Made by a program: the position numbers and the translations under genes. From positions 1-48,399 of the forward strand of contig JBBQPO010000012.1 in NCBI GenBank assembly GCA_038217285.1: 48,399 nt of DNA, in the 5' to 3' direction. The stretch's first letter is position 1. Each line of letters opens with the position of its first letter. Positions 8,335-48,399 of this stretch are shown in pieces. A model generated the notes under the pieces. That model was given only the letters and a program-made list of their open reading frames with translations. It was not told where the DNA came from and ran no database searches. The DNA is from Chthonomonadales bacterium (GTDB taxonomy: Bacteria > Armatimonadota > Chthonomonadetes > Chthonomonadales > Chthonomonadaceae).

Positions 8335-10881
8335 GAGCACCGTCCAGACCAGATCGGTGACCGCGTTCTCCCGGCTGGACGCTCGGGCAAGGTACTGCCC
8401 TGCTACCGCCTGCTCTTTCGGCGTGGGGAAACGGGCGAGAGCCGAGAGATAGAGATCTTCGATCAGAGCCGCGTTGGTAAAGCCTGTATAGTGCTGCGCG
8501 CCGACCTGTGCCATGTGGTAGGCGGTGCCTCCATTCAGCAGCTCCAGGGCTTCCAGCAGAGTAGGGGAGTTCTGGCGTTCGCAGGTGCAGGCGGTCTCGC
8601 GCAGCGGCTGGCCGAACGTTGTGTTAAAGGCCGAAGGCTCCGGATAGGGCCGTTGCGTGGCATACTGCATCCGGCCCTCCATCTGGGCGAGTTCCCGCTT
8701 CATCGGCTCGGACTTACCGCCGTCCGCAGTAAATTTTTCCCGCAGTTTCTGCTCCTCTACGGCGAACTGCGCGGGCGGCAGCAGCGCACTGGTCGTGAGG
8801 CCGATGGCGTCTTTCAACTGTTCCGCCGTCAGCATGCGAATACGGGCATGAGAGAAGAGGGCCTCGTCTGTCTGATTGAACTTGTTGGGCTGCGTGTCGC
8901 TCTGATAGGTGCGGCTGTTGCAGAGCAGACGCAGGATGTGCTTGCGGTCGTAGCCGCTGCGTTCGAACTCCTGCGCCAGCGCGTCGAGCAGAGGCACGTT
9001 GGCAGGCGGATTGGAGGAGCGGAAATCATCGACCGGGTTGACGATGCCCCGGCCCATCAGGTCGGCCCACATTCTGTTGACTTCGACACGCGCGAAAAAG
9101 GGATTGCCCGGCTGCGTCAACCACGCGGCGAACGCGGCACGACGATCCATCGTACTCTGGCCGGACACGCTGCCCCAGGGGATCATCGTCTCTTTCGTGG
9201 TGGGATGCTGCACCTCGCCAGTGCTGGCAAGCTGGACGATGCCGTCTTGGGTGACCTGCGTCCGCGCAAAGACTGCCCCGATGCTATAGTAGTCTCGCAT
9301 CGTCCAGTTTTCGAACGGGTGGTTGTGGCACTTCGTGCATTCGACACGGGTTCCCATGAAGAGCTGCGCGGTCATCTCCGTGCGCTCCTCCATCGTCGGG
9401 ATCGCGACAAAGTAGTTGGCGGGCGCGACCTGGGCCGTATTGCCGGAAGAGGTGAGGAGAGTGCGAGCGAACTGATCGTAGGGCATATTCTTGCGGAAGG
9501 CTTCCACCAGCCACTGTGCGAAAAGGTCGGCGCGACCGGATTTCAAGGTGCGCGGCGAGACGCGCATGAGGTCGGCCTTCTTCAGCGCCTGGAACCGAGC
9601 GAACTCCTCCGTTCCGAGCAGAACATCGATCAGTTGCGATCGCTTGTCGGTGTGGCCGTCCTGAAGGAAGGCGCGTACCTGTGCGGCGGTCGGGGGCAGA
9701 CCGGTCAGATCGAGATAGACGCGGCGCAGGAAGACGCTGTCGGTGCATAGGCCGGAAGGGAGGTACTGCAACTGCCTCAGTTTCGCGTCTACCAGCTTAT
9801 CCACCACATTGTTTTCGCGTGGGCTGCTCCAGGCGAATCCCGGCACATCCTGGACGACGGTGACGAAGACCGACTGGAATTTGTCGAGGTAGCGCACACT
9901 GATCGCGGCCTGCCCCCGGTCGAGGCCGGTGATCAAGCCGTCTGTATCGACCTTGACGAGGTTCGGATTGGAGCTTTCGTAGGCGGCGATGGCAGAGACG
10001 TCCCGCGTGGAGCCGTCGGAATAAGAGGCCAGAACGCTCAACTGCTGTCTCAGGTTCGGCGCGTGCAGCAGCCGGCTGCTGCCAGGGGTGATCACGATTT
10101 TGGTACACTCGGTCTTCGGCAGGTCGACATGCGCGCCTTCATAGATCCAGTTACGGAGCACCTGATAGCCCGCGTCGGTCTTGCGGAGTCGTTTGCCTCC
10201 GACGTGCGGAATCTGCAGAAGCGGCTTCTTCATGATGAGACTGTCGGTCGGATCCATCACGTTCAGGCGTCGATTGAAGCCGTCCCGGGTGAGAGAGACG
10301 CTGTCGATACGGGGGTCGTAGCCGAATAGCGACAGCGAGAAACCGCCTTTGCCGTGCGGCGAGCCGTGACACGATCCGGTGGCGCAGCCCTGTTTGGTGA
10401 GGATCGCCAGCGTTTCGAACTTGAACTGCACGGGATCCGGCGCGGCGCTGTTGGCGACCACTACGGAAACCTGTACCGTTCGCCCGCCTGCCAGGACGGA
10501 AAGGGTCGTATTGCCATCTCCAACGGCCGAAACCCGGCTTCCAGAGACGGTCGCGATGTGGGGGTTCGTCGAGCGGATCACCGCCAGCGGGGTTAAGTCC
10601 CGGGATTCTCCGTGGAAATAGCCGGTTACGACGAACTGTCGATAGGCGCGGCGGCTGCCCAGTTTCACCGTCGTCGGATAGACCTCGACACGTTCCGGCA
10701 GAGTCGAGGCCGCAACAGGGTGAATCCTGCCGGAAACCGAGTTTGCCGGAGGGGCAACGTGCTGCGCTGATCCCGCCGATACCAGGCAGAAAAGCAGCGC
10801 GACGGTCAGGCCCCAGGTGCGACGATAACCGAACCGGTTCTGCCCGCAAAGGCTGCGATCCGCGTTAGAAAAGTTCGACAA
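8305..10881 (-). CDS. DUF1549/DUF1553 (PSD1/PSCyt2) protein with Ig-like (Big_2) domains
   Basis: GCATGSCHG..GKGGFSLSLFGYDP, FLRRVYLDLTGLPPT, ECTKCHNHPFENW, VNRMWADLMGRGIVNPVDD, TACTCER and EFLFQH motifs. Start proposed at in-frame TTG 10881; the ORF track extends to 10980, deep into DUF1501. Confidence 0.88.
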   Translation of the reverse strand: MSNFSNADRSLCGQNRFGYRRTWGLTVALLFCLVSAGSAQHVAPPANSVSGRIHPVAASTLPERVEVYPTTVKLGSRRAYRQFVVTGYFHGESRDLTPLAVIRSTNPHIATVSGSRVSAVGDGNTTLSVLAGGRTVQVSVVVANSAAPDPVQFKFETLAILTKQGCATGSCHGSPHGKGGFSLSLFGYDPRIDSVSLTRDGFNRRLNVMDPTDSLIMKKPLLQIPHVGGKRLRKTDAGYQVLRNWIYEGAHVDLPKTECTKIVITPGSSRLLHAPNLRQQLSVLASYSDGSTRDVSAIAAYESSNPNLVKVDTDGLITGLDRGQAAISVRYLDKFQSVFVTVVQDVPGFAWSSPRENNVVDKLVDAKLRQLQYLPSGLCTDSVFLRRVYLDLTGLPPTAAQVRAFLQDGHTDKRSQLIDVLLGTEEFARFQALKKADLMRVSPRTLKSGRADLFAQWLVEAFRKNMPYDQFARTLLTSSGNTAQVAPANYFVAIPTMEERTEMTAQLFMGTRVECTKCHNHPFENWTMRDYYSIGAVFARTQVTQDGIVQLASTGEVQHPTTKETMIPWGSVSGQSTMDRRAAFAAWLTQPGNPFFARVEVNRMWADLMGRGIVNPVDDFRSSNPPANVPLLDALAQEFERSGYDRKHILRLLCNSRTYQSDTQPNKFNQTDEALFSHARIRMLTAEQLKDAIGLTTSALLPPAQFAVEEQKLREKFTADGGKSEPMKRELAQMEGRMQYATQRPYPEPSAFNTTFGQPLRETACTCERQNSPTLLEALELLNGGTAYHMAQVGAQHYTGFTNAALIEDLYLSALARFPTPKEQAVAGQYLARASSRENAVTDLVWTVLNTQEFLFQH

Positions 10882-33832: not shown

Positions 33833-34369
33833 ATGCCTGTCCCTTATCGCAAAACACCCCGCGCCGCCGAGTTCGGTCAGGCCGCTTACCTGGACATCGT
33901 GTGGCTGCCTTCCGACCGGACTCTCTATGGTGGCCTGCTGGTCCTGGATGGAAAGGGACAGCCGCAGGAGTTCGTCCACAACACGCTGGCTGCGCCATCC
34001 GGCCTGCTCTGGCCGGACGACAAGGTACAGTCGCTTGGCATCGTCATGCTGGCGCACTCCCTATTCGACGCCTGCCGCCGCGAACCCGATCTGCTCATCG
34101 GCCTGCCCACCCTCGGCTCGCCCGAAACGTGCCGAACGGAGATCGCGCCGTCCATTCCGTTTGTCCAGGTTATTCCGGCCCAGGACGGGATTCCGGCGCA
34201 ATGGAACTGGATGAACGAGCCGCCCTCCGGCGCGATGCGAGCGGCCATCCTGGCGCAGGAGCTAGAGCGGCGCGGCTTCATTGTCGAGCCGTTCGAGCGG
34301 CTGCACCACGCGCTCCGTCTGGTCTATCCGCAGGCGGCCTGGCACGGGGGCGACGAGGATGCAGCTTAG
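33833..34369 (+). CDS. Hypothetical protein
   Basis: 178 aa, starts 3 nt after the ATPase stop and overlaps the helicase start; YGGLLVLDGKGQPQEF..PDLLI..EPFERL pattern. Confidence 0.75.
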   Translation: MPVPYRKTPRAAEFGQAAYLDIVWLPSDRTLYGGLLVLDGKGQPQEFVHNTLAAPSGLLWPDDKVQSLGIVMLAHSLFDACRREPDLLIGLPTLGSPETCRTEIAPSIPFVQVIPAQDGIPAQWNWMNEPPSGAMRAAILAQELERRGFIVEPFERLHHALRLVYPQAAWHGGDEDAA

Positions 34370-36023
34370 TGTCGGGGTGGCGAAACGCGAGAAGGTCGGT
34401 GCCTTTCGACAGGGTGTGCCCGCCTATTTCGAGGTAGGAAACTGGGAGTTGGGCCGCGCTATCCGCCACACGGTCGGCTGGTTCGACTACGACACGCTGG
34501 ACGATCCCTCGCTGTTGGGTGGAGAGGCGGGGGAAGGCGAAGGTGCACAGTCCTCACTCTCCGAGGCTGCCGACCTGATGCGGCGGTTGGCGGCGGCCCT
34601 CCAGCCTTCCTGTACCACCCTGGCGACGCCGGACGGCGTTCTGGAGTGGCCTGCTCCCCTGCTGCCCTATCAGCGCGAAGGCGTCCTGGCGCTGCTGTCG
34701 CGCAACGCGCTGCTGCTCGCAGACAGCATGGGCCTCGGAAAAACGATTCAGGCCATCGCTGCGCTGCGCATCCTTATCCACCAGGGGAACCTCACAACGG
34801 CATTGATCGTCTGTCCCGCCTCGCTGCTTACCCAGTGGCGGCGTGAGTTGGCACGGTGGGCTCCCGATCTGAAGGTGGTTCCCGTGTCCGGCAGTCCGTC
34901 GGTTCGCGGTCATCTCTGGCAGTTGCCCGCGCATATCAAGCTGGTCGGTTACGAGACGCTGCGCGCCGATGTCATGGATCTGCGGGACAGTCCGGTACTG
35001 CAGAAGCCGTGGGGCGTCGTGATTCTGGACGAAGCCTCCCGCATCAAGAATCGGCGCTCCTCCGTCGCTATCGCCTGCAAACGTGTTCCGCGTGAACGTC
35101 GCTGGGCCCTCACTGGCACACCGCTCGAAAACAGCGTGGATGATGTCGCCTCCCTCCTCGACTTCCTGCTTCTCGATCCGGATGCGCCTCCCCCTCCGCC
35201 ACTCGGGCTTGCCGAACTCAAAGCGCAACTCCTTGCCAACCAACTGCGGCGTCGGAAAGAGGATGTGCTGCCGGATCTGCCGCCGAAACGGATCAGCGAT
35301 GTCGTCATCGAACTGCCCACCCGGCAGCGCGAAGCCTACGATCGCGCCGAACAGGAGGGCATCGTGCAGTTGACGCAGGCGGCGGGCTCCGTGACCATCG
35401 TCCATGTCCTGGAGTTGATCTCCCGCCTCAAGCAGTTGTGCAACTACGATCCCAGCAGCGGCGAGTCGGGCAAACTGGCGGACATTCGAGAGCGGATGGT
35501 TGCTCTAGTGGCAGAAGGACAGCGGGCGCTCATCTTCTCCCAGTTTACGGACGATATATTCGGTATCGGAAGGCTCTCCGACGTCCTGCGCGAATTTCAG
35601 CCGCTGACCTTCACCGGCAGCATGAGCCTCCGCCAACGTGCCGAGATCGTCGAGCGGTTTCTCCAGCACCCACAACACAAAGCCCTGCTTCTCTCCCTGC
35701 GCGCCGGAGCCCAGGGGTTGAACTTGCAGACCGCCTCCTATGTGTTTCACTTCGACCGCTGGTGGAACCCCGCTATCGAGGAGCAGGCGGATGGTCGTGT
35801 GCATCGTATGGGCCAGACCTATCCCGTCACGATCTACCGCTATATCTGCGCCAACACCATTGAAGACCGCATCGACGCCAAACTCCGCGAGAAACGGAAG
35901 ATGTTTCAGGAGGTCGTGGAGGATGTCAGCCTGGAACTGACGACAGCCCTCTCCGAACGGGAGATATTCGATCTGGTCGGCATCTCCGCACGGCACCCTA
36001 TTCGCAGAGCAGATCCCCGTTAG
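34359..36023 (+). CDS. SNF2-family (SF2) helicase/translocase
   Basis: LLPYQREG, LLADSMGLGKTIQA, LIVCPASL, ILDEASRIKN, LTGTPLEN, LIFSQF, GAQGLNL and WWNPAIEEQADGRVHRMGQ motifs. Start proposed at ATG 34359. Confidence 0.93.
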   Translation: MQLSVGVAKREKVGAFRQGVPAYFEVGNWELGRAIRHTVGWFDYDTLDDPSLLGGEAGEGEGAQSSLSEAADLMRRLAAALQPSCTTLATPDGVLEWPAPLLPYQREGVLALLSRNALLLADSMGLGKTIQAIAALRILIHQGNLTTALIVCPASLLTQWRRELARWAPDLKVVPVSGSPSVRGHLWQLPAHIKLVGYETLRADVMDLRDSPVLQKPWGVVILDEASRIKNRRSSVAIACKRVPRERRWALTGTPLENSVDDVASLLDFLLLDPDAPPPPPLGLAELKAQLLANQLRRRKEDVLPDLPPKRISDVVIELPTRQREAYDRAEQEGIVQLTQAAGSVTIVHVLELISRLKQLCNYDPSSGESGKLADIRERMVALVAEGQRALIFSQFTDDIFGIGRLSDVLREFQPLTFTGSMSLRQRAEIVERFLQHPQHKALLLSLRAGAQGLNLQTASYVFHFDRWWNPAIEEQADGRVHRMGQTYPVTIYRYICANTIEDRIDAKLREKRKMFQEVVEDVSLELTTALSEREIFDLVGISARHPIRRADPR

Positions 36024-36051: not shown

Positions 36052-37683
36052 TCATGTATCTGAGGAGGAGGGCGTCTGGGCCTGCCACATGGTCCAGTTT
36101 CCATTGAACAGTCGCGGGGGGCCGTCCTGCTCGAATACGAGCAGTTGCGTGGTGACCTTATCCAGAAAAAAGCGGTCATGGCTGACGACCACAACAGCTC
36201 CCGGAAAGTGGATCAGCGCCTGCTCCATCACCTGGGTACTGGTCAGATCGAGATGATTTGTCGGCTCGTCCAGGACCAGAACCTGCGCCCCGGAGAGCAG
36301 ACACTGGGCCAGGGCGACCCGCGCCTTCTGCCCCCCGGAGAGCGTTCCGATCCGCTGCTGAAGGTCCATTTCTGAGAACTGCAGCAATGAGAGAAAGCGG
36401 TTTACCTGCTTACGCTGCGCCTGGCCTGCCATGCTGAACTGCCCGCCGGTTGTGTTCACGGCATGCGTGACCGTGTCTTTCAGGTCGAGATCTCTCTGCA
36501 CCGCGTTGAAGTCGGCGAAGGAGACTCCGCGCTCCCACACGACCTTGCCGGAGTCGGGAGTTTCCTGGCCCGTCAGGAGGCGCAGCAACGTGGACTTGCC
36601 GCTGCCATTCGAGCCGATGACGCCTAATCGCTCTCCCCGCGCCAGTTCCAGCGTGACCCCTTCAAAGAGACGATGTTCGCCGTAAGCATGGGCTACCTCT
36701 TCCACACGACACAAACGGTCGGGGATGCGAAGGCCCTGATAGAGACTGGTGATGATGGTGTCGATGGGGCGAGGGGTACGGCGTTTGCGGATATCCGCCA
36801 GTTTGCGGTGCAGGGTGTCACTGGGATCACGGGCCAACTCCTCACGGTCGGAAGCCGCTTCACCTTCCAGAGTCAGCATCTCTTCCTCATGTTCGAACTG
36901 CCGTTCCAGCGTTTTAAGGCGGAAGGGTTTGGTACGTACATAGTGGGTGTAGTTGCCGGGATAGTCGTGGAGATGATAGTTTTCCACCTCCACCACACGC
37001 GTCACCACTTTGTCGAGGAACTGCCGGTCGTGCGAGACGAGGAGCAGCCCGCCGCGGTAGTCCCGCAACCACGATTCCAGCCAGGCCAGTCCTGCTACGT
37101 CCAGAAAGTTCGTCGGCTCATCCAGAAGCAGCACATCGGGCTGTTCCAGCAGGATGCGCGAGAGGGAGGCCCGAATACGCCAGCCGCCCGAGAGTTCGTC
37201 GATAGGCTGGTGGCGGCGTGTGGCGTTGAACCCGAGTTTGGTCAGCACGGTGTCGATCTGCCTTGGGTAGTCCCACCCGCCCCGAGACTCCATCTCCTCT
37301 AGCAGGTGCGCCTGCCGATCGATCAGTCGTTCCATCTCCGCCATGTCGGTGACCGTCTGAAGCGCGAGGCCAATCCGGTCCAGTTCGGCCTCGACGGCTC
37401 GCAGATCGGCGAACAGGGCTTCGAGCACCTGCTGGATCGAGGCCGTGCCACTCAAGTCGGAGAACTGAGAAAAGTATCCCAGTCGGATGCCTTGGTTGAC
37501 CTCGACATCGCCTTCGTCCGGCTCCTCTTCACCCAGAATCAGGCGGAGCAGGGTCGTCTTACCCGCGCCGTTTCTGCCGAGCAGTCCGACACGCTCACCT
37601 GCCCGCAGGCGGAAAGAGACATCGCGCAAGACCAGACGATCATCGTAACGCTTGGTGACGCGGCTGATACGTACCAGGCTCAT
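36052..37683 (-). CDS. ABC-F family ATP-binding protein
   Basis: Two ABC domains (GRNGAGKT / LSGGW / LLLDEPTN and GSNGSGKS / LSGGQ / VLDEPTNHLD), VSHDR, no transmembrane segments. Confidence 0.93.
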   Translation of the reverse strand: MSLVRISRVTKRYDDRLVLRDVSFRLRAGERVGLLGRNGAGKTTLLRLILGEEEPDEGDVEVNQGIRLGYFSQFSDLSGTASIQQVLEALFADLRAVEAELDRIGLALQTVTDMAEMERLIDRQAHLLEEMESRGGWDYPRQIDTVLTKLGFNATRRHQPIDELSGGWRIRASLSRILLEQPDVLLLDEPTNFLDVAGLAWLESWLRDYRGGLLLVSHDRQFLDKVVTRVVEVENYHLHDYPGNYTHYVRTKPFRLKTLERQFEHEEEMLTLEGEAASDREELARDPSDTLHRKLADIRKRRTPRPIDTIITSLYQGLRIPDRLCRVEEVAHAYGEHRLFEGVTLELARGERLGVIGSNGSGKSTLLRLLTGQETPDSGKVVWERGVSFADFNAVQRDLDLKDTVTHAVNTTGGQFSMAGQAQRKQVNRFLSLLQFSEMDLQQRIGTLSGGQKARVALAQCLLSGAQVLVLDEPTNHLDLTSTQVMEQALIHFPGAVVVVSHDRFFLDKVTTQLLVFEQDGPPRLFNGNWTMWQAQTPSSSDT

Positions 37684-37772: not shown

Positions 37773-40700
37773 TCAGGGTTTTCGACGGGCCGGTGAAGAG
37801 GGAGCGGATGCCGCGGATTCCCCTATAGGCCTCAGATTCGCCTTCGCCAGAAGCGCATTGAAGGCGGAGATATCCGCGCTCTTGAGCTGTTCCCAGGCTT
37901 TCGTGGCTTTCTGAAGATCGGATTCGGTCGAGAGAACGGCCTTGCGCATCGCTTCATTGGGAACCATGTCGCCGGAATCGAGCGTGTTGAGTTGGCGACC
38001 GGAGGCGCTGTTGATGCTATAGAAGGTGGGCTGACTGGGCGGAGCGCCCGCGCCGCCACCCCCTCCGCCGCCGGGACGCCGGCCGAAACCTGCAGCGCCG
38101 CCGATGGATGCGAGTTTGGTGTCGAGCAAGTGAGCGGCGGTCGCGACGTCCGCAGGCGGATTCTCCTTGATAAGCCCCGCAAGGGACGACCTGATGGCTC
38201 CGACCTCATGGTAGCCGTCCCAGGACTCCTGGGAGCACCGATAGAGACTCATCTGAAGCTCATGCTGCTCACGGAGGTCGCCGGAAGAGGCAGGGGAGCG
38301 GGGATCGTTCTTCACGGTCACTGTCTGCAGGTAGGATTTGCCTTGCACGGTCAGCGTTAGCGTGTAGACGCCGGGAAGGGCCAGGGGCCCTTCCGGGGAA
38401 GCGGGTGTCTGGCCGGGGTTCGCGTTAATCTCATAGGAGTGGCTGAAGGCTGCCGGACTGTCGTACCGCAGGTTCCAGTTCGTCCGGTTCAGGCCGGGGG
38501 CAGTCGGTAGAGGCGAGGGTTTCTCTACCCAGAAATTCGGGACCGGCGGCGGCGGTTCGGACAGGGTGGGAACCGGGGCGCTGGACAGGCGCCGCACGAT
38601 GCGCCCATGTGCGTCGCGAACCTCCAGCGTGACGTCGCCAGACGGATGGGAACCAAGATAGTAGTAGAGAATAGCGCCCGCAGGGGCGTTTTCAGCGTGG
38701 GGAATCTCCGGGGGAAAGGGCGTGTCGCCGTTCACATTGCGGCGCACCCGCGTGGCTGCGGCGATCTTGAACAGATGCACCGGCTCAGAGGTGACCGACG
38801 GTACGATCTGGCGCAGGGGCGAGATGTCGTCGAGAATCCAAAATCCGCGTCCGTAGGTTCCTACGACCAGGTCGTTGTCCTTGACCACCATGTCCCGATA
38901 GGAGGTGTTCGGCAGGTTGAGCAGGAGACTCTGCCAGTGGTCGCCGTCGTCGAAGGAGACGTAGACCGCGCTTTCGGTGCCAGCAAAGAGGAGGCCCGCC
39001 CGCTCGGTATCTGCTCGGATGACGCGTGCGAAGCTGCCGCCTGTCTGATCCTCCGGCAGTCCGGTGATGATCGCCGTCCAGGTCTTACCGAAGTCATGGG
39101 TACGGTAGAGATAGGGTTTGTAGTCGCCCATCCCATGGCAGTCCACGGCCGCATACGCGGTTCCTGCGTCCAGATGCGACGCGTCGAGTGCCGAAATATC
39201 GGCGCGGGTGGGGTTCGGAAGACCGGGAATGGTGACGTCGTCCCAGGTGTTGCCATGGTCGCGCGATAGTTTGATCAGACCGTTGCTGGTGCCGGTCCAG
39301 ATCACCTTCCCGTCGACGCTGGAGGCCGAGATCGATTCGATGGCCCCGCTGCCTGCCGCGCGCTGGGCTTCGATCTCCTCTTCATTGCCCTGTTCTTCGT
39401 CGCCGTCCTGGTCATCGCTTTCCGGTGGCGACTGACCCCCGACTGCGCCCGCCGTTGCCGGGCGAAATGGCGCGGCTGGAGCCGTAGGCGCTTTCTCCCC
39501 CGGCTTCAACGTCAGGTCAGGACCGAGTTTGCGCCAGCGCTTGCCGCCGTCGGTGGTCGCCATCAGATACTGGAATCCGGCGAAGAGTTCGTGCGGGTCT
39601 GTCCGCGAGAAAAGCAGAGGTTGGTTGCCGACCTTACGGAGCCCAAGGCTCGAATCCTGGCTGGGGCTAACGTTAATCCACTGGCCGCTGGGGTAGGTCG
39701 TCTTGACGATGCCTCCTCCCGGCCCGCCGGCATAGCTCACCTTCGGATTCAGAGGATCGGCAACGATCGATCCGAACTCATAGCCGGGGTGCGGCAGCCA
39801 GTCCATCGGCGTGATCGCGCCCAGGTTGCCCCGGCTGCTCGTTGCGATCGAGCCGCTGTCCTGCTGGGTGGCGTAGACCCAGTAGGGGAACTGATTGTCC
39901 ACGGAGATGTGATAGACCTGCGCCGTCGACTGGTTGTACCAGGAGCTCCAGTTCAGGCCGCCGTCGAGCGAGATGGTCGCGCCCTGATCTGTGCCGAAAC
40001 AGAGGCGCTTGCCGTCCGTGGGGTCGATCCACAACTGCTGCGGATCGTCTCCTCCGGGAGCGCCTTTGAATCCTGTGAAGGTCTGACCTCCGTCGGTGGA
40101 TCGGTAGCAGCAGGTGTTGACGACGTAGACGATGTCAGGATTCTGCGAATCGACGTACACGCCGCAGTTGTAGCCACCCTGACCGTTGGAGACACGCAGG
40201 TCGGCGGCGTCCATGTGCCGCCATGTGTCGCCGCCATCGTCCGAGCGGTAGAGGCCGAAATTCCCGACCAGATACATGCGCTGGGAGTTCGTATTCATGG
40301 CGATAGCAACGGAGGTTCTGCCGGTAATTTCCGGCTGCCCATCGCCATCGAGCTCCTTCCAGGTCAGCCCCTCGTCGGTTGACTTGTAGAGTCCGCCCAG
40401 CGCGGGCGCTGGCCTCTGTCTCACCCCACCCGGAACGACCGCCGCACCAGGAACGACAGGAACGACCGGAGCGCCCGGAATGCCCGGAATGCCCGGCCCA
40501 CCCGGAACGCCTGGGCCTCGGGCCTGTCCGGGGGCGTTGTAGTAGTGCATAGTCGTGGCCAGCATCACGTTCGGGTGGTCGAAGGCCCAGGCGATCTTCT
40601 GAACGCCGGTTTCGTTCCCGGTGCGGAGCGTCTTCGTCCACGTGTGGCCGCCGTCCGTGCTCCGGTAGAGGCCCCGCGCCTCGGATTTGGCGATTATCGA

Positions 40701-44712: not shown

Positions 44713-46140
44713 TTACGCCTTTTCGAAGCGGGAGAGCCAGGGATGGCGCGCCTGGAAGCGCGACGCTTGTTCCGGGTTCACCATGTGCAGGAACGAGAGG
44801 TAACCTGCCGCGTAGAGCATCGCGTTTTTGCCGAGGCGCTCCGAGACGGCAGCAAAGCCTTCTGTCTCGCAGTGATGCAGGAAGGCACGGAAACGGCGCG
44901 TGTCCTGTCGCGAGACGCTCGGGGTCTCGTTGACGACCACGCCGGTGACTGCCTGCCGGTGTTGCGGGCGCATGACGCGTGTCTTCTCCTCGTTGATCAC
45001 ATGCCCCTCGGCTGCGATAACCGAGCGGGCAAGTCCGAGCAAGGGACCGACAGGAGCGTTACCTTCGGCATGCGAAAAGACGAGGTCATCGGCATAGCGC
45101 GTGTAGGCAAAGCCGAAGGCGGCGGCGAGGCCAGTCAGGCGGGCATCAAGCCGACGGCAGAGAATGTTGGTCAGCGCGGGTGAGGTGCAAGCGCCCTGCG
45201 GGAGGGATCGTGCGCCGAGTGCGATAAACCGCTTCTCGCCGTCCAGCGTCGCGGCGACCCGGGGGCTCTCTGTAGTGAGCAGAGCCAGCAGGGTCGCGAT
45301 ACCCTCGTTGTAACCGAAACTCGCGAACAGTCCCCGCACCCGGCGCATCCGGATAGACGGGAAGAAGTCTTTCAGGTCCAGACGAACCACTACCGCTTTC
45401 CCGGTGTGCTGCCGGGCGTTATCGAGGATCGAACGCCGGGCGCGAAACGCCATCGCCGCATCGTGTACCGCGATCTTGTTCAGGAGGTTTGTCAGTATCC
45501 AGCTCTGCCCAACGCGCAGGCGCCGTTTTGGGGAGGAGATGACCCGCAAACCGCCGCTTCGCTTGGGGATGGTAAATCGGGAATAGTGATCGACGGTGGC
45601 AGCGCCGCGATGATACGTCAGCCAACCCAGTTCTTGTGTGGTGATGCCGATCGCCTTCGCCAACTCTGCAGCCGTGGTCAGGAGAGGAAGCCTGAGGTCC
45701 GCGAGCTTTTCGGGATCTCCGCCTTCGTAGCGGAGGCCGGCCGAGAAGCCTTCGCCGAGGTATGGGAGCGTCGTCTGGCGGCGAACTCTGTCCTGTTCGT
45801 GCCGCTGGGCGTTGCGCTCCCGTGTCTCTGCGCGACGGACCTCTCTCGCCGCCCGAACCCGAACGATACGTTTCTTGCGGACCTCCTGCAGTAACTGCGC
45901 GACGTTGCCGTCTAGGCGCAGCTCCTTGTCGATCTCTCGCAGCTCCGCCTGGAGCGGACGGAGCTCGGCGTAGAGCGTCTGCAGTTTTGCCTCCGCCTCC
46001 TCGGCCGTTTTCTGGACGCCCTCCTCGGGAGGCCAGTAGCCGAGCCGCTCCATCTCCTCGCGAATGAACTCGGCCTTGCCGACCTCCTGGACGCGGGTGC
46101 GCCAGTTGGGCAGGCTCGATATGGTCGTCTCATCGCTCAC
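44713..46140 (-). CDS. Retron-type reverse transcriptase (Mx162-like, long N-terminal extension)
   Basis: [20 protein letters not shown], retron region [36 protein letters not shown] and region [13 protein letters not shown] 46140 overlaps the upstream TGA; 475 aa. The 804-aa ORF in the track is an over-extension. Confidence 0.92.
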
Positions 46141-48098
46141 GATCTGCCCTCCAGCATCGCTTGAAACTGCGCTTCGGTCAATACAGCGACGCCCAGTTGC
46201 TGCGCCTTCGCCAGTTTGCTGCCCGCCTTGTCCCCCGCGACGAGATAGGTGGTGTTCTTGCTGACGCTGCCCGTCGCTGTTCCGCCCCTTGCCTGTACCA
46301 GCCCCTCGGCCTGATCGCGAGTGAAGAGCGTCAGAGCCCCCGTAAAGACGAATGTTTTGCCGGCGAAACAGGTCGGGTCGACGGTGGCGACAGGCTTGAT
46401 GTCCCGGCGCGCCACCTGGAGCGCCACCTGCTCGGCGACGACGATACTGGCCGCCAGTATATGAGGACAGGGGCCTTTCCGCAGCCGATCGCGCCGAAAA
46501 ATCGAACAGTCGCACTGCGCGTACTGCACACGTCCATCGCCGTCGATCTCCAGCACGACCTCCTGCTCTTTGCGCCCGCGGGCATCCTGCCTTACCATCG
46601 CCTCGCAGCGTACCCGCTCGGGTCGGGAAGCCGGAGGCTCCTCGCTGCCCCACTTTACCCCTTTTGAATCGATGATGCGTTTGGCCTGCGCGACGCGCCT
46701 GTCCTGTTCTGTCTCCGGGAACGCTACCGGAAACGGCAGCAGCGGACGCCAGCGATAGGCGCCCGTCACATGGTCGTACATCGCCTGTCCTCGCGCGCAG
46801 CAGTTTTGCAGAACATTCGTCGCCTCGTCCTGCTGGATTCCGAGACGCTGCGCCAGTTGCAGTGGCGTCAACGTCAGGTACTCCGCGAGAACGTATTCTG
46901 CCTGCGTGATCTGCTCCGGCTTCACCTCCGCTGTCGCCGCCAGTAGATCGAAGCGTGCGGCCTGCGCCCAGTCGTTCTTGGTCCATCCGGAGAGGCCGAG
47001 GTCGAAGCGCATCTCCTTCTGAAAGATCGTCCAGTAGGAGGGCATGCCCCCGCCGAGCAGCCGCACCTGCACGCGATCTGCATGCGGCAGAAGATGCTCC
47101 ATGACGAGGAGGCGCCGCCGCCCCCACAGCCGGATTTCGCCCTGGTAGTCGCCAGTGTAGACGTGTTCGGCTTCGCGAACCACGATATTCCAGGGCTCGA
47201 TGGTGATGGTCGGCCTTTCGCCCGGAGTAATCCCGAAGCGCAGGGAACGAGGACTGGTCTTCTCACGGCAGCGGCGCAGTACCGACAGAACCTCCGCCAT
47301 TGTCGCCGCGCTTAACTGCAGGTCGACCGCCCCGAACGCAGAGGCCGACTGCACCTGCAAAAAGCCGCGCACCCATGTCGGCGGCAGATCTATCTTCTTC
47401 TCGACGGCAGCGCCTGCGCCGGTCGCCACCGTCACGCCCTCCGCGCCTATCTGGAGGAAGGCAGGGCGGTAGCTGCGGATCCGGCGTATCTCGTCGGCGA
47501 GCGCGCGGCTGTAGTCGATATTGGTGGTGCCGAACCGCAGCTCCCCGAACGTCTCGAGCCGGTCCATCGGTACCGAGACGCGCCCGTAACTCGATTCATC
47601 CTGCGAGAAGACTTCGAACAACACGACATCGGGATGGACGCTCACGACAGGGTCGAGGACGTACCAGGCGTCCATGTCATTCTTGTAGAGCCATTTGAAG
47701 TATTTGCGCCTCTGGGCGTAGAAGACGCCGCCATAGGCGATATCTTTCAGGGGATGAGCCGCCTTCGAGAGCGCTCCTACCTTCGCCGCCACCTCTTTGC
47801 GTCGCGCGGTCAGCGCAGGCGTCCGTGCCGCCCTGTCTCGAAACTCGTCGCCCATCTCCTCCAGATACCGCTCCGCGACCCAGGTCTGGTAGACGGAATG
47901 GTTCTTGGGCGTTGATCGCAGATCGCCCGTGACCACCTCATAGAGCGCCAACATGACGCGGGCATAGGCGAGGCTATCGTTGACCATCGCTTCCAGGTGC
48001 ACGCCGGGGCGCGCCGCCTCGACCGGCATATCCAGATGCATGCCATCCGGTTCGAGCCTACCGTTGCCAGGACGCGCATAGTTTTGTGTGATCTCCAT
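46137..48098 (-). CDS. Winged-helix + SWIM zinc finger + BRCT protein (retron type XIII partner-like)
   Basis: [48 protein letters not shown], wHTH (LAQRLG..GQAMYD..GAYRWR), SWIM CDC..GPCPH and [42 protein letters not shown]. Confidence 0.88.
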
Positions 48099-48101
48099 CG
48101 T

Positions 48102-48399
48102 TCAGCCTCCTGCCACGCCGTCCAGTGTAAAGCCGGGTATCTCGATTCCGTCGAGCGCCAGTTTCGCAAGTTGACCCAGCGCCCAGTCAGCATCGCCTGG
48201 TGTGCGGCTGCGCGCCATCTCCAGCAGCAGGGCTATGTCGGGAGTCGGCTGCGCGTCGAGACGGATCTTCACCAGCTCCTTGGCCCGCCGGCCCCGATCC
48301 CGTGCACGCAGTACGGTGCGATCAAAGGCTGCCGTCCGGTCCGGTGGTGCCGCACGTCCGAGCAGTTCACCCGCGACGAACGCCTGCATCTCGGGGTCG
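48102..48399 (-). CDS. C-terminus of an alpha-helical (putative ARM/HEAT-repeat) protein, 5' end outside the window
   Basis: Open frame to the window edge, ending 3 nt before the SWIM-BRCT start, with GGAGG in its last codons. Helical AAFDRTVLRARDRGRRAKE..DADWALGQLAKL. The ARM call is inferred from operon context. Confidence 0.6.
   Translation of the reverse strand, partial: DPEMQAFVAGELLGRAAPPDRTAAFDRTVLRARDRGRRAKELVKIRLDAQPTPDIALLLEMARSRTPGDADWALGQLAKLALDGIEIPGFTLDGVAGG

Follow-up and report, generated by a model that had tools for sequence, protein, structure and literature searches.

The window analysed here is one whole contig (C12 of genome G000; 48,399 nt). At its end, three genes follow one another on the minus strand: the last 98 codons and stop of a first gene, which is open at the window end (48102..48399); a 653-aa ORF encoding a partner protein with predicted clamp-like, winged-helix, SWIM, and BRCT parts (46137..48098); and a 475-aa ORF with a GTG start encoding a reverse transcriptase (RT; 44713..46140). 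The three genes are tightly coupled translationally. The first gene ends with ...GGAGGCTGA, followed by ACG and then the ATG of the SWIM gene, a gap of 3 nt. The stop codon TGA of the SWIM gene and the start codon GTG of the RT gene overlap by 4 nt, as GTGA at 46140-46137. Shine-Dalgarno-like sequences are positioned just 5′ of the SWIM-gene ATG (GGAGG) and 5′ of the RT start (GGAGGG). Both junctions are present in the sequence as a first-pass annotation of this DNA had read them when it proposed a coupled operon, and the gene order is identical in five relatives.

The RT is the last gene of the operon, and the three motifs by which it had been recognised in that annotation were located by a motif script on the minus strand: NARQH (the NAxxH motif; aa 241, 45406-45420), YADD (aa 349, 45085-45096), and VTG (aa 398, 44941-44949); LPQG is found at aa 313. 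The main text of Mestre et al. 2020 (PMC7736814) describes NAxxH, YxDD, and VTG as hallmarks of retron RTs. Pfam RVT_1 matches aa 191-402 (E 2.3e-22), and the N-terminal ~150 residues form an extension ahead of the RT fingers. The closest solved RT is that of retron Ec86, which matches the RT core (aa 145-425) with an E of 1.3e-42. A same-genus RT is 79.6% identical over all 475 aa and has an ATG start inside the same 4-nt overlap. The best PADLOC model for the RT is RT_XIII (E 1.6e-155, 516.7 bits, aa 12-469), followed by RT_other with 318.6 bits, and SWIM_XIII matches aa 1-555 of the partner protein (E 7.1e-167, profile positions 1-504 of 509). Matches of this strength are far beyond chance, and the earlier assignment to the Mx162-like type XIII agrees with them and with the main text of PMC7736814. 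Judging from the sequence, the locus is almost certainly the protein-coding 3′ part of a type XIII (Mx162-class) retron from an Armatimonadota-type bacterium, the host lineage being taken from the source names of homologues.

The first-pass annotation had advised retrieving the upstream contig for the rest of the operon. The remainder of the first gene is located on another contig of the same genome, C16; the retron unit is split over C16 and C12. A tblastn search with a same-genus full-length query matches only C16 (aa 1-975, 54.4%) and C12 (aa 1042-1139, 82.7%). Codons 1-964 are at C16 40086-42977 (plus strand), ~66 codons are found in no contig of G000, and the expected full length is ~1130 aa. 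No bridging sequence between C16 and C12 was found, but each half occurs in a single copy in the assembly and the identity profile rises toward the C-terminus. Therefore, we treat the two contigs as carrying one locus.

The 98 residues within the window have no Pfam, PADLOC, or NCBIfam match. The helical-repeat identity of the protein, which is not demonstrable from these residues, is therefore taken from the C16 part and from full-length homologues. The C16 part matches Pfam LVIVD (E 4.8e-15) and, partially, the PADLOC models HEAT-ARM_XIII (E 2.5e-13) and WGR_XIII (E 2.1e-11). The model of a homologue (pLDDT 89.0) has a helical bundle (residues 8-77), a 28-strand propeller (99-405), and an α-solenoid (421-1123). 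Profile matches and model together predict a LVIVD β-propeller joined to a HEAT/ARM solenoid, so the helical-repeat protein of the first-pass annotation holds for the solenoid and is extended by a propeller. The same annotation had tied its reading to an ARM/HEAT-like upstream protein in a conserved neighbourhood; the C16 part matches HEAT-ARM_XIII, and the gene order is kept in the five relatives. Since the PADLOC HEAT-ARM models match the gene only partially, automatic tools may call this locus incomplete. Between G000 and the same-genus genome G031, the first gene is 54.4% identical, with 43-56% per 100-aa window in the propeller part, versus 81.9% for the SWIM gene, 79.6% for the RT gene, and 95.9% for a flanking enolase-family gene. 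By sequence comparison, the first gene is the fastest-evolving part of the retron, and its product is therefore the likely sensor.

Upstream of the first ORF, C16 carries an msr-msd RNA gene (~39729-39969, plus strand), and upstream of that, a single promoter-like site with a TG extension (39649-39677, plus strand). The unit thus runs from the promoter-like site through the RNA gene, the propeller-HEAT/ARM gene, and the clamp-like/winged-helix/SWIM/BRCT gene to the RT gene. The stretch from the RNA gene to the first ORF has no terminator-like site. The RNA is composed of end inverted repeats that pair, with an invariant AGCA directly after the 5′ arm, a small msr hairpin, and a long msd hairpin. 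The RNA gene is backed by strong covariation. Of the 64 pairs in the consensus, 37 show compensatory changes, and 24 pairs of the 26-pair msd stem are changed on both sides. Paired cells amount to 93.5%, as compared with 73.4% in shuffles (0/500 reach the observed value) and 31-53% with the partners slid. The core pattern occurs once in G000 (C16 39816-39919) and in 6 of 42 genomes of the family, all six among the eight with SWIM_XIII, while a backwards-read control gave 0. No Rfam family matches the RNA gene. In a sister genus, the RNA genes form arrays of two or three, whose members differ in their msd stems.

The first-pass annotation had called the system intact, which the assembly does not establish: the first gene runs off the contig, ~66 codons are absent, and the C16 half enters a repeat. 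The last 66 nt of C16 come directly after the ARM frame and are 98.5-100% identical to a multi-contig repeat. At least eight other contigs have this repeat at or near an end; it always begins at CTAGAAGCGCGGCC beside unrelated flanks, runs on into an ORF, and has a depth of 55-113 versus 5-7 for the gene (public contigs, run X1). These observations, with the missing codons, would fit a decaying retron, in which an IS-like insertion would interrupt the propeller-HEAT/ARM gene after codon ~964-967 and leave only the RT, SWIM, and RNA genes whole and the system inactive or altered in the sampled population. The repeat is called IS-like for its copy number and sharp ends; the 167-aa ORF start that it contains has no Pfam match. 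In a relative (G008), the same gene is spread over several reading frames, so loss of the first gene may recur. However, no independent contig runs across the repeat junction of C16, and the C12 end is unique sequence with no IS end. Moreover, the assembly is of low coverage and has 459 contigs, so that a contig may stop at an insertion present only in a minority. In same-genus G033, the gene is likewise split over two contigs, with no IS and ~4 residues unaccounted for, indicating that contig breaks in the first gene occur without disruption. We regard decay as a serious possibility at somewhat less than even chances, and the chances that the copy is intact in the sampled cells as even.

The partner protein was modelled with AlphaFold2 (653 aa; mean pLDDT 89.4, pTM 0.81). 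Its N-terminal part (aa 34-374; 46977..47999, minus strand) is predicted to form a two-domain module with the fold of PCNA-like DNA clamps. In a Foldseek search of the PDB, the top matches listed are sliding clamps, almost all of them PCNA (E ~3e-7, TM by target 0.5-0.6). VIA-align superimposes residues 35-374 of the model on residues 1-244 of Sulfolobus 2ix2_B with a Z of 16.2 and an rmsd of 2.6 Å over 210/245 residues, and gives a Z of 16.0 for human PCNA (1axc_C). Across PCNA superpositions, the whole two-domain protomer is covered (Z 15.4-16.2, rmsd 2.5-3.1 Å, 210-222 residues aligned). The N-terminal ~375 residues are therefore predicted to be a complete PCNA-like clamp protomer. When a profile of 150 sequences was run against the full set of PDB sequences, none of the 31 matches with E up to 1 was a clamp; the modelled likeness is one of fold only, not of family membership. 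Within the module, WGRRRL (aa 325-330) is near-invariant.

The winged helix, the SWIM zinc finger, and the BRCT domain, which the first-pass annotation had named, were all confirmed, and a predicted clamp-like module is added to them. The winged helix (~aa 390-455; 46734..46931, minus strand) is modelled as three helices and two strands and has weak profile matches in the PDB (alignment A2), namely transcription factor E (E 0.0012), eS25, and IclR. The SWIM zinc finger, CDCx12CPH (aa 529-546; 46461..46514, minus strand), is an exact match to CxCx12CxH, although Pfam SWIM scores under its gathering score (E 0.0086). Its ligands are conserved in the 150 sequences (C529 in 123/126, C531 in 120/127, C544 in 117/124, and H546 in 119/125).

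The BRCT domain (aa 575-648; 46155..46376, minus strand) is matched by Pfam BRCT (PF00533; E 6.4e-14; 52.4 bits, cut-off 21.3) and is not covered by the SWIM_XIII profile, which ends before it. NCBIfam LigA models match this tail only (NF005932, E 8.5e-24, partner aa 564-649, ligase positions 579-664). A BRCT domain is found in 119 of 120 close homologues among the matches listed and in just 7 of 150 representatives at 50% identity; the LigA-like tail is restricted to this lineage. The BRCT domains of LigA and RFC1 bind DNA ends or nicks. Taken with the WGR domains found in other partners of type XIII, the lineage BRCT suggests that DNA ends or junctions are recognised.

To our knowledge, every retron of known function is anti-phage, and we lean towards an anti-phage role for this locus, for which the first-pass annotation had inferred defence or DNA-damage sensing. 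Our literature search found no type XIII retron reported to defend against phage and no paper giving a type XIII mechanism or function, in keeping with the first-pass statement that the mechanism is not established. A cellular role fits as well as defence, given housekeeping flanks, synteny within the genus, concentration in families, and partly vertical inheritance. The flanking genes encode proteins of the histone-deacetylase family, a phosphoribosyltransferase, an aldo/keto reductase, an enolase-family protein, and PhyH. Within ~25 kb of the locus, no clear defence system was found, only generic SNF2-helicase, ABC-ATPase, and ankyrin matches. Within the genus, synteny of the upstream flank is maintained, and the prevalence of the SWIM gene is high inside single families of the phylum sample (21/27, 15/23, 6/7, and 11/29). 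For type XIII, the main text of PMC7736814 reports partly vertical inheritance and a correlation with 16S and suggests domestication. In addition, the PCNA-like fold, the LigA-type BRCT, and the WGR of other type XIII partners are domains of replication and repair proteins. The retron could accordingly be a domesticated DNA-transaction module, which serves the cell itself in replication, repair, or DNA-end handling rather than in immunity. However, the overall distribution is patchy (present in 64 of the 401 genomes sampled from the phylum and in 8 of the 42 from the family), the flanks differ in another genus, the first gene evolves far faster than its neighbours, which is more typical of conflict systems, and the retron functions known to us are those of defence. 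Domestication thus deserves to be kept in mind, with perhaps one chance in a handful or slightly better.

We put the chances that the SWIM protein binds the msDNA, or some other duplex, by means of its clamp-like module just short of even. Alternatively, the protein may be an effector nuclease with a metal-dependent active site on a clamp-like scaffold fold. The DEDE motif, Dx7Dx4Ex32Dx37E (aa 149-233; 47400..47654, minus strand), matches the published motif in spacing, and in the model it sits inside clamp-like domain 1. Among the 150 sequences, D149 is conserved in 125/130, D157 in 109/131, E162 in 133/134, D167 in 133/135, D195 in 118/137, and E233 in 116/139, which amounts to at least 96% of aligned sequences for each of D149, E162, and D167 and to 83-86% for D195 and E233. 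The operon has no other candidate effector domain; in profile searches of all three proteins, no enzyme domain other than the RT was recognisable. On the other hand, the DEDE region takes a PCNA-like clamp fold in the model, at high confidence, rather than the RNase H-like fold of a transposase, and sequence searches matched no nuclease or transposase family. The model is poor just ahead of the last motif residue, E233 (residues 221-226 with pLDDT below 50; mean of 46 for the 221-230 block). A nuclease is unlikely in our judgement. The proposal that the RT belongs not to a retron but to another element (group II intron, DRT system, or Abi RT) has a negligible probability and is refuted as far as sequence can go, since the weak matches to the group II intron maturase (1.5e-14), Drt2, and Drt3a models score far under the curated cut-offs (53.9 vs 300, 32.8 vs 390, and 27.6 vs 200 bits), whereas RT_XIII scores 516.7 bits, the retron-specific NAxxH and VTG are found, and the operon begins with a covarying msr-msd RNA gene.

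A retron unit split over two contigs, working by the mechanism that follows, is in our view a good explanation of the locus and probably the right one. The RNA gene and the three ORFs would be expressed as a single transcript. The RT would prime from the 2′-OH of the conserved G after the 5′ inverted repeat and copy the msd part, yielding a branched msDNA of ~120-145 nt with the 26-bp hairpin as its core. The SWIM protein would hold this msDNA, with the PCNA-like module and the winged helix on the duplex and the LigA-type BRCT on a DNA end or junction. The propeller-solenoid protein would serve as scaffold and sensor; it is the fastest-evolving component, as a protein in contact with phage proteins would be expected to be. 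On infection, the phage would disturb the complex and the SWIM protein would be freed or activated, and its near-invariant acidic residues and DNA-holding parts would then cut DNA or block replication, so that the infection is stopped.

A bolder version of this mechanism, which we consider improbable, makes type XIII a mimic of replication. The SWIM partner would be a true clamp on its own msDNA stem, the BRCT would read the DNA end or branch junction, and the propeller-solenoid protein would be loader or sensor. On infection, the clamp would be released onto phage or host DNA or would capture clamp-binding replication proteins, and replication would stall. If so, this would be immunity without a classical toxin domain, and the RNA arrays of the sister genus, with their differing msd stems, would supply a single set of proteins with alternative loads. 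The locus yields three leads: a partner called nuclease- or transposase-like in print is now predicted to be a clamp-like DNA holder, a ligase-type BRCT has been added in one whole lineage, and a rapidly evolving propeller-solenoid protein is the likely sensor. The 64 of 401 genomes make type XIII common in Armatimonadota-type genomes of the sample.

Type XIII includes Mx162 and its relatives, which were the earliest retrons to be discovered. In the main text of Mestre et al. 2020 (PMC7736814), type XIII corresponds to RT clade 10 and holds Retron-Mxa1 (Mx162), Mxa2 (Mx65), Sau1 (Sa163), and Nex2 (Ne144), with a DEDE/winged-helix/SWIM protein and HEAT/ARM proteins as partners. The linked cluster-114_1 protein is described there as having Dx7[D]x4Ex30-32Dx37E, a winged helix of DprA type, and a SWIM CxCx12CxH, and its DEDE region is read as transposase- or nuclease-like, with catalysis proposed. 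The locus studied here is alike in the RT family with its long N-terminal extension, in the DEDE motif, winged helix, and SWIM finger of the partner, with an exact match in spacing, in the upstream helical-repeat gene, and in the msr-msd RNA (end repeats, msr hairpin, long msd hairpin, and conserved G after the 5′ repeat). Unlike published type XIII retrons, it has a SWIM protein with an added C-terminal LigA-type BRCT, a helical-repeat protein with an N-terminal LVIVD propeller and partial HEAT-ARM_XIII and WGR_XIII matches, and an RNA gene upstream of the first accessory gene, not adjoining the RT. The main texts of PMC7736814 and PMC13712802 contain neither the term BRCT nor the name Armatimonadota.

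With PCNA and other sliding clamps, the partner module shares two topologically repeated clamp domains per protomer in the predicted structure, at only 9-13% identity. It differs from PCNA in a ~90-aa helical insertion in domain 1 (roughly aa 58-146), in near-invariant acidic residues that are not typical of clamps, and in its fusion to winged helix, SWIM, and BRCT. With LigA, the NAD-dependent DNA ligase, the partner has only the BRCT in common, corresponding to the last ~86 positions of LigA models; the adenylation, OB, zinc-finger, and HhH parts are absent. Ec86, a type II-A retron, is alike in the RT core, whereas its effector is nucleoside deoxyribosyltransferase-like, and it has no N-terminal RT extension, clamp-like partner, or solenoid partner. 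In Ec86, the RT, the msDNA, and the effector are held in one complex, a general logic that would also apply to this locus.

The type XIII retron genes lie on the minus strand at the right end of the window, which spans the entire contig C12 of the source genome assembly (G000; 459 contigs, 95% complete). The last 98 codons of the first gene (48102..48398) are open at the contig end and are followed, on the same strand, by the gene for a 653-aa SWIM protein (46137..48098) and an RT gene with a GTG start (44713..46140; 475 aa). The first two genes are separated by a 3-nt gap (GGAGGCTGA-ACG-ATG); the SWIM and RT genes overlap by GTGA, with GGAGGG upstream. The three-gene coupled operon described in the first-pass annotation, gap and overlap included, is present in every detail. 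The overlap of the SWIM and RT genes is absent in a sister-genus genome (G009, contig C2; 10506-10586 of locus L011). The ~95 nt between the two genes there form a long purine-rich/pyrimidine-rich hairpin, which gives spurious Rfam miRNA matches and has no similar counterpart in G000.

The RT matches Pfam RVT_1 (2.3e-22). A motif scan locates NARQH (residue 241), LPQG (residue 313), YADD (residue 349), and VTG (residue 398), bearing out the NAxxH, YADD, and VTG hallmarks reported earlier. The placement of the RT is based on PADLOC models. It matches RT_XIII at 1.6e-155 (516.7 bits, as compared with 318.6 bits for the runner-up model), and the SWIM protein matches SWIM_XIII at 7.1e-167 over residues 1-555, in agreement with the type proposed in the first-pass annotation. 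The RT scores against NCBIfam models of other retron RTs, group II intron maturases, and DRTs are all under the cut-offs. According to the main text of a retron survey, type XIII comprises RT clade 10, including Mx162, Mx65, Ne144, and Sa163; its cluster-114_1 protein combines a Dx7[D]x4Ex30-32Dx37E motif with a DprA-type winged helix and a SWIM CxCx12CxH motif, a HEAT/ARM gene usually precedes, and the RNA structure is of its own type (Mestre et al. 2020, PMC7736814). The earlier description of the type as an Mx162 class with ARM-repeat and winged-helix/SWIM partners agrees with that text. Here, the SWIM protein carries Dx7Dx4Ex32Dx37E exactly (residues 149-233) and CDCx12CPH (residues 529-546); among its close homologues (n=120, query included), the acidic pattern with relaxed spacing is found in 120/120 and the SWIM pattern in 119/120. 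Judged from sequence, the locus is a real type XIII retron.

In the same-genus genome G031 the operon is complete, with a first gene of 1139 aa, a SWIM gene of 653 aa, and an RT gene of 475 aa. When the 1139-aa protein is compared with all 459 G000 contigs by tblastn, there are two matches only. The C-terminal part is at the window end (G031 residues 1042-1139; 82.7% identity), and the N-terminal part is on a second contig, C16 (40086-42986; G031 residues 1-975; 54.4% identity), which places there the rest of the operon that the first-pass annotation had expected on an upstream contig. The identity of the first protein to its relatives increases from 41-61% in the first 400 residues to 68-77% at about residues 900-1000 and reaches 77-90% over the final 98 residues. 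This rise along the protein is consistent with the two pieces being halves of one gene, with no bridging sequence between them.

Beyond codon 964, the reading frame on C16 runs directly into 66 nt (C16 42978-43043; locus L017) identical to a multi-copy repeat. The repeat lies at, or close to, the ends of at least eight other contigs (C364, C184, C338, C285, C65, C170, C77, and C113), always starts with CTAGAAGCGCGGCC, and has unrelated flanks. It runs on into an ORF that starts ~100 nt inside the element and whose first 167 residues have no Pfam match. In public contigs the repeat has a depth of 55-113 (about 10-20 times unique DNA), as compared with 5-7 for the first gene. The many contig ends, the sharp start, the ORF, and the depth indicate that the repeat behaves like an insertion sequence. 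It is probably a main cause of the fragmentation of the G000 assembly.

The main alternative to a gene divided by assembly is that the G000 copy is broken, the repeat having inserted in the first gene. The passage of the frame into the repeat is as expected for such an insertion, as is the absence of the ~66 codons between the halves from all 459 contigs in the tblastn search with the full-length homologue. C400, C51, and C157 were considered as a source of these codons and rejected: they have short matches to the repeat end and flanks nothing like the first gene. In the public run X1, Logan contigs cover the C16 end at a depth of about 5-7 and stop at position 9909 of the extracted locus L016, with the bin 9914-9952 uncovered; at this depth, no X1 contig bridges the junction of gene and repeat. 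A fixed insertion is made less likely by two observations: the window end is unique sequence without the repeat, and the first gene of the same-genus genome G033 is likewise split between two contigs, without the repeat and with almost nothing missing. The G033 break lies between the end of C219 and the start of C224 (loci L018 and L002), at about residue 883/888. In metagenome bins, assemblies seem to break readily in this variable gene. The chances that the G000 first gene is whole in most of the cells sampled are about even. In the sister-genus genome G008 (C50, minus strand; ~9160-12546 of L012), the matches to the propeller-HEAT/ARM gene fall into four pieces in different frames, and the homologues include no protein from C50; the adjacent SWIM and RT genes are whole. 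Either indel errors or decay to a frameshifted pseudogene would account for the broken frame.

The C16 part of the first protein matches Pfam LVIVD (4.8e-15) and Beta_propel (1.3e-06) and has only partial PADLOC matches, to HEAT-ARM_XIII (2.5e-13) and WGR_XIII (2.1e-11). The predicted structure of the G031 homologue (39 sequences; pLDDT 89.0) consists of a short helical bundle, a 28-strand propeller (residues 99-405), and a solenoid (residues 421-1123). The helical-repeat protein of the first-pass annotation is thus recovered as the solenoid, and a propeller has to be added to it. The structures closest to the model, at low TM-scores, are scaffold proteins that combine a propeller with a solenoid, a predicted likeness that reflects a common architecture and is uninformative on function. 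The identity between G000 and G031 is 54.4% for the first gene (N-terminal 975 residues), 81.9% for the SWIM protein, 79.6% for the RT, and 95.9% for a flanking enolase-family gene. By these values, the first protein is the fastest-evolving part of the unit.

A conserved non-coding element of ~240 nt (C16 about 39729-39969) is located ~120 nt upstream of the first-gene start codon and is common to the relatives. It is preceded by a promoter-like site that has a TG extension, and no terminator-like site is found in the interval between it and the first ORF on C16. In an alignment of eight copies, the two ends form an outer stem, an invariant AGCA immediately follows the 5' arm, and a small hairpin, a conserved 15-pair helix, and a 26-pair hairpin with a different sequence in every copy make up the rest of the fold. 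Support for this fold is strong: of 64 pairs, 37 are changed on both sides, and 93.5% of the cells are paired, as compared with 73.4% in shuffles (none of 500 as high as the real alignment) and 31-53% after sliding the partners. The predicted fold has the anatomy of an msr-msd RNA. A search of Rfam with the window part and three loci gives no retron family, and sub-threshold miRNA and sRNA models on the hairpins were dismissed as chance.

Copies of the RNA gene were counted by exact-pattern search. A single copy is present in each of G000, G031, and G033, and the sister genus has two or three: three in tandem in G007 (C6 139866-140599, minus strand; L013), three in G008 (C50 59745-60435, minus strand; L012), and two in G009 (C2 1800194-1800808, plus strand; L011). 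The array copies lie 269-511 nt apart, upstream of the type XIII operon; they have the msr core in common, and each msd stem is different and internally compensated. To our knowledge, a retron with multiple template RNA genes has not been described.

The predicted structure of the SWIM protein (150 sequences; pLDDT 89.4, pTM 0.81) has sliding clamps, almost all of them PCNA, as its best Foldseek matches. A second structural aligner places an entire PCNA chain on residues 34-374 (Z 16.2, rmsd 2.6 Å, 210/245 residues), and human PCNA gives Z 16.0. In the PDB, the SWIM-family sequence profile matches only winged-helix proteins, and no clamp. A complex prediction with three copies of residues 36-368 scores 0.00, with the fold of the partner itself uncertain, and is uninformative as to a ring. 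Alternatively, and this is the main rival for the protein, it could be a nuclease effector, consistent with the near-invariance of the acidic residues D149 (125/130), E162 (133/134), and D167 (133/135). The WGRRRL sequence at the start of a helix is likewise near-invariant. However, since the whole PCNA chain superposes on residues 34-374, the published DEDE motif would sit in a clamp-like domain, not in a transposase-like fold. The terms 'PCNA', 'clamp', 'BRCT', 'propeller', and 'Armatimonad' are all absent from the main texts of two retron surveys (PMC7736814 and PMC13712802), and a full-text literature search for a retron with a BRCT domain or with PCNA or a sliding clamp returned nothing relevant.

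The SWIM_XIII profile ends before the BRCT tail of the SWIM protein is reached. This tail matches LigA models at 8.5e-24 and is present in 119/120 close homologues listed (53-100% identity), from Chthonomonadaceae, Chthonomonadales, Capsulimonas, Armatimonadaceae, or Armatimonadota, whereas a local phmmer search with the tail finds it in only 7/150 representatives of the wider family. Therefore, the BRCT fusion is a lineage-specific accretion. Among the 115 representatives with the SWIM motif, 74 end within 30 residues past it; Pfam gives no known domain in 19 long-tailed proteins without a BRCT-like match.

SWIM_XIII is found in 8/42 genomes of the family and in 64/401 of the phylum sample, where it clusters in a few families (21/27, 15/23, 6/7, and 11/29). 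Some genomes of the phylum, for example G132, G168, G202, G237, and G110, have two to four SWIM_XIII genes each, with open frames of ~650-770, ~580, and ~500 aa. The different lengths within one genome indicate that several sub-variants coexist, probably with and without BRCT. The locus is flanked by housekeeping genes; on the upstream side, synteny holds within the genus and not with another genus. Among 15 neighbouring ORFs (~25 kb), only generic SNF2-helicase, ABC-ATPase, and ankyrin matches are found, and no second defence system. The SNF2-family helicase (34281-36023, plus strand; 580 aa) has partial-coverage PADLOC matches of the ZorD, DpdE, and DrmD type (best 3.4e-65), and the ABC-type ATPase next to it (36052-37683, minus strand; 543 aa) matches mad3 (5.5e-55). 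Both are generic domain matches, and the partner genes that such systems have are absent.

What we observe is the anatomy of the unit only, from which we infer every functional step. The RT would produce msDNA, the SWIM protein would be a clamp-like DNA holder that reads ends, and the propeller-solenoid protein would be a fast-evolving sensor and scaffold. The whole unit is most likely an anti-phage surveillance complex, the output of which would be the action of the SWIM protein on DNA; a main alternative is a domesticated cellular role of the system. New in this locus are the BRCT on the SWIM partner, the propeller on the solenoid partner, and the Armatimonadota-type lineage. Residues 34-374 of the SWIM protein resemble PCNA at the level of the predicted fold, without a sequence-profile match, and its tail resembles the C-terminal ~86 positions of LigA.
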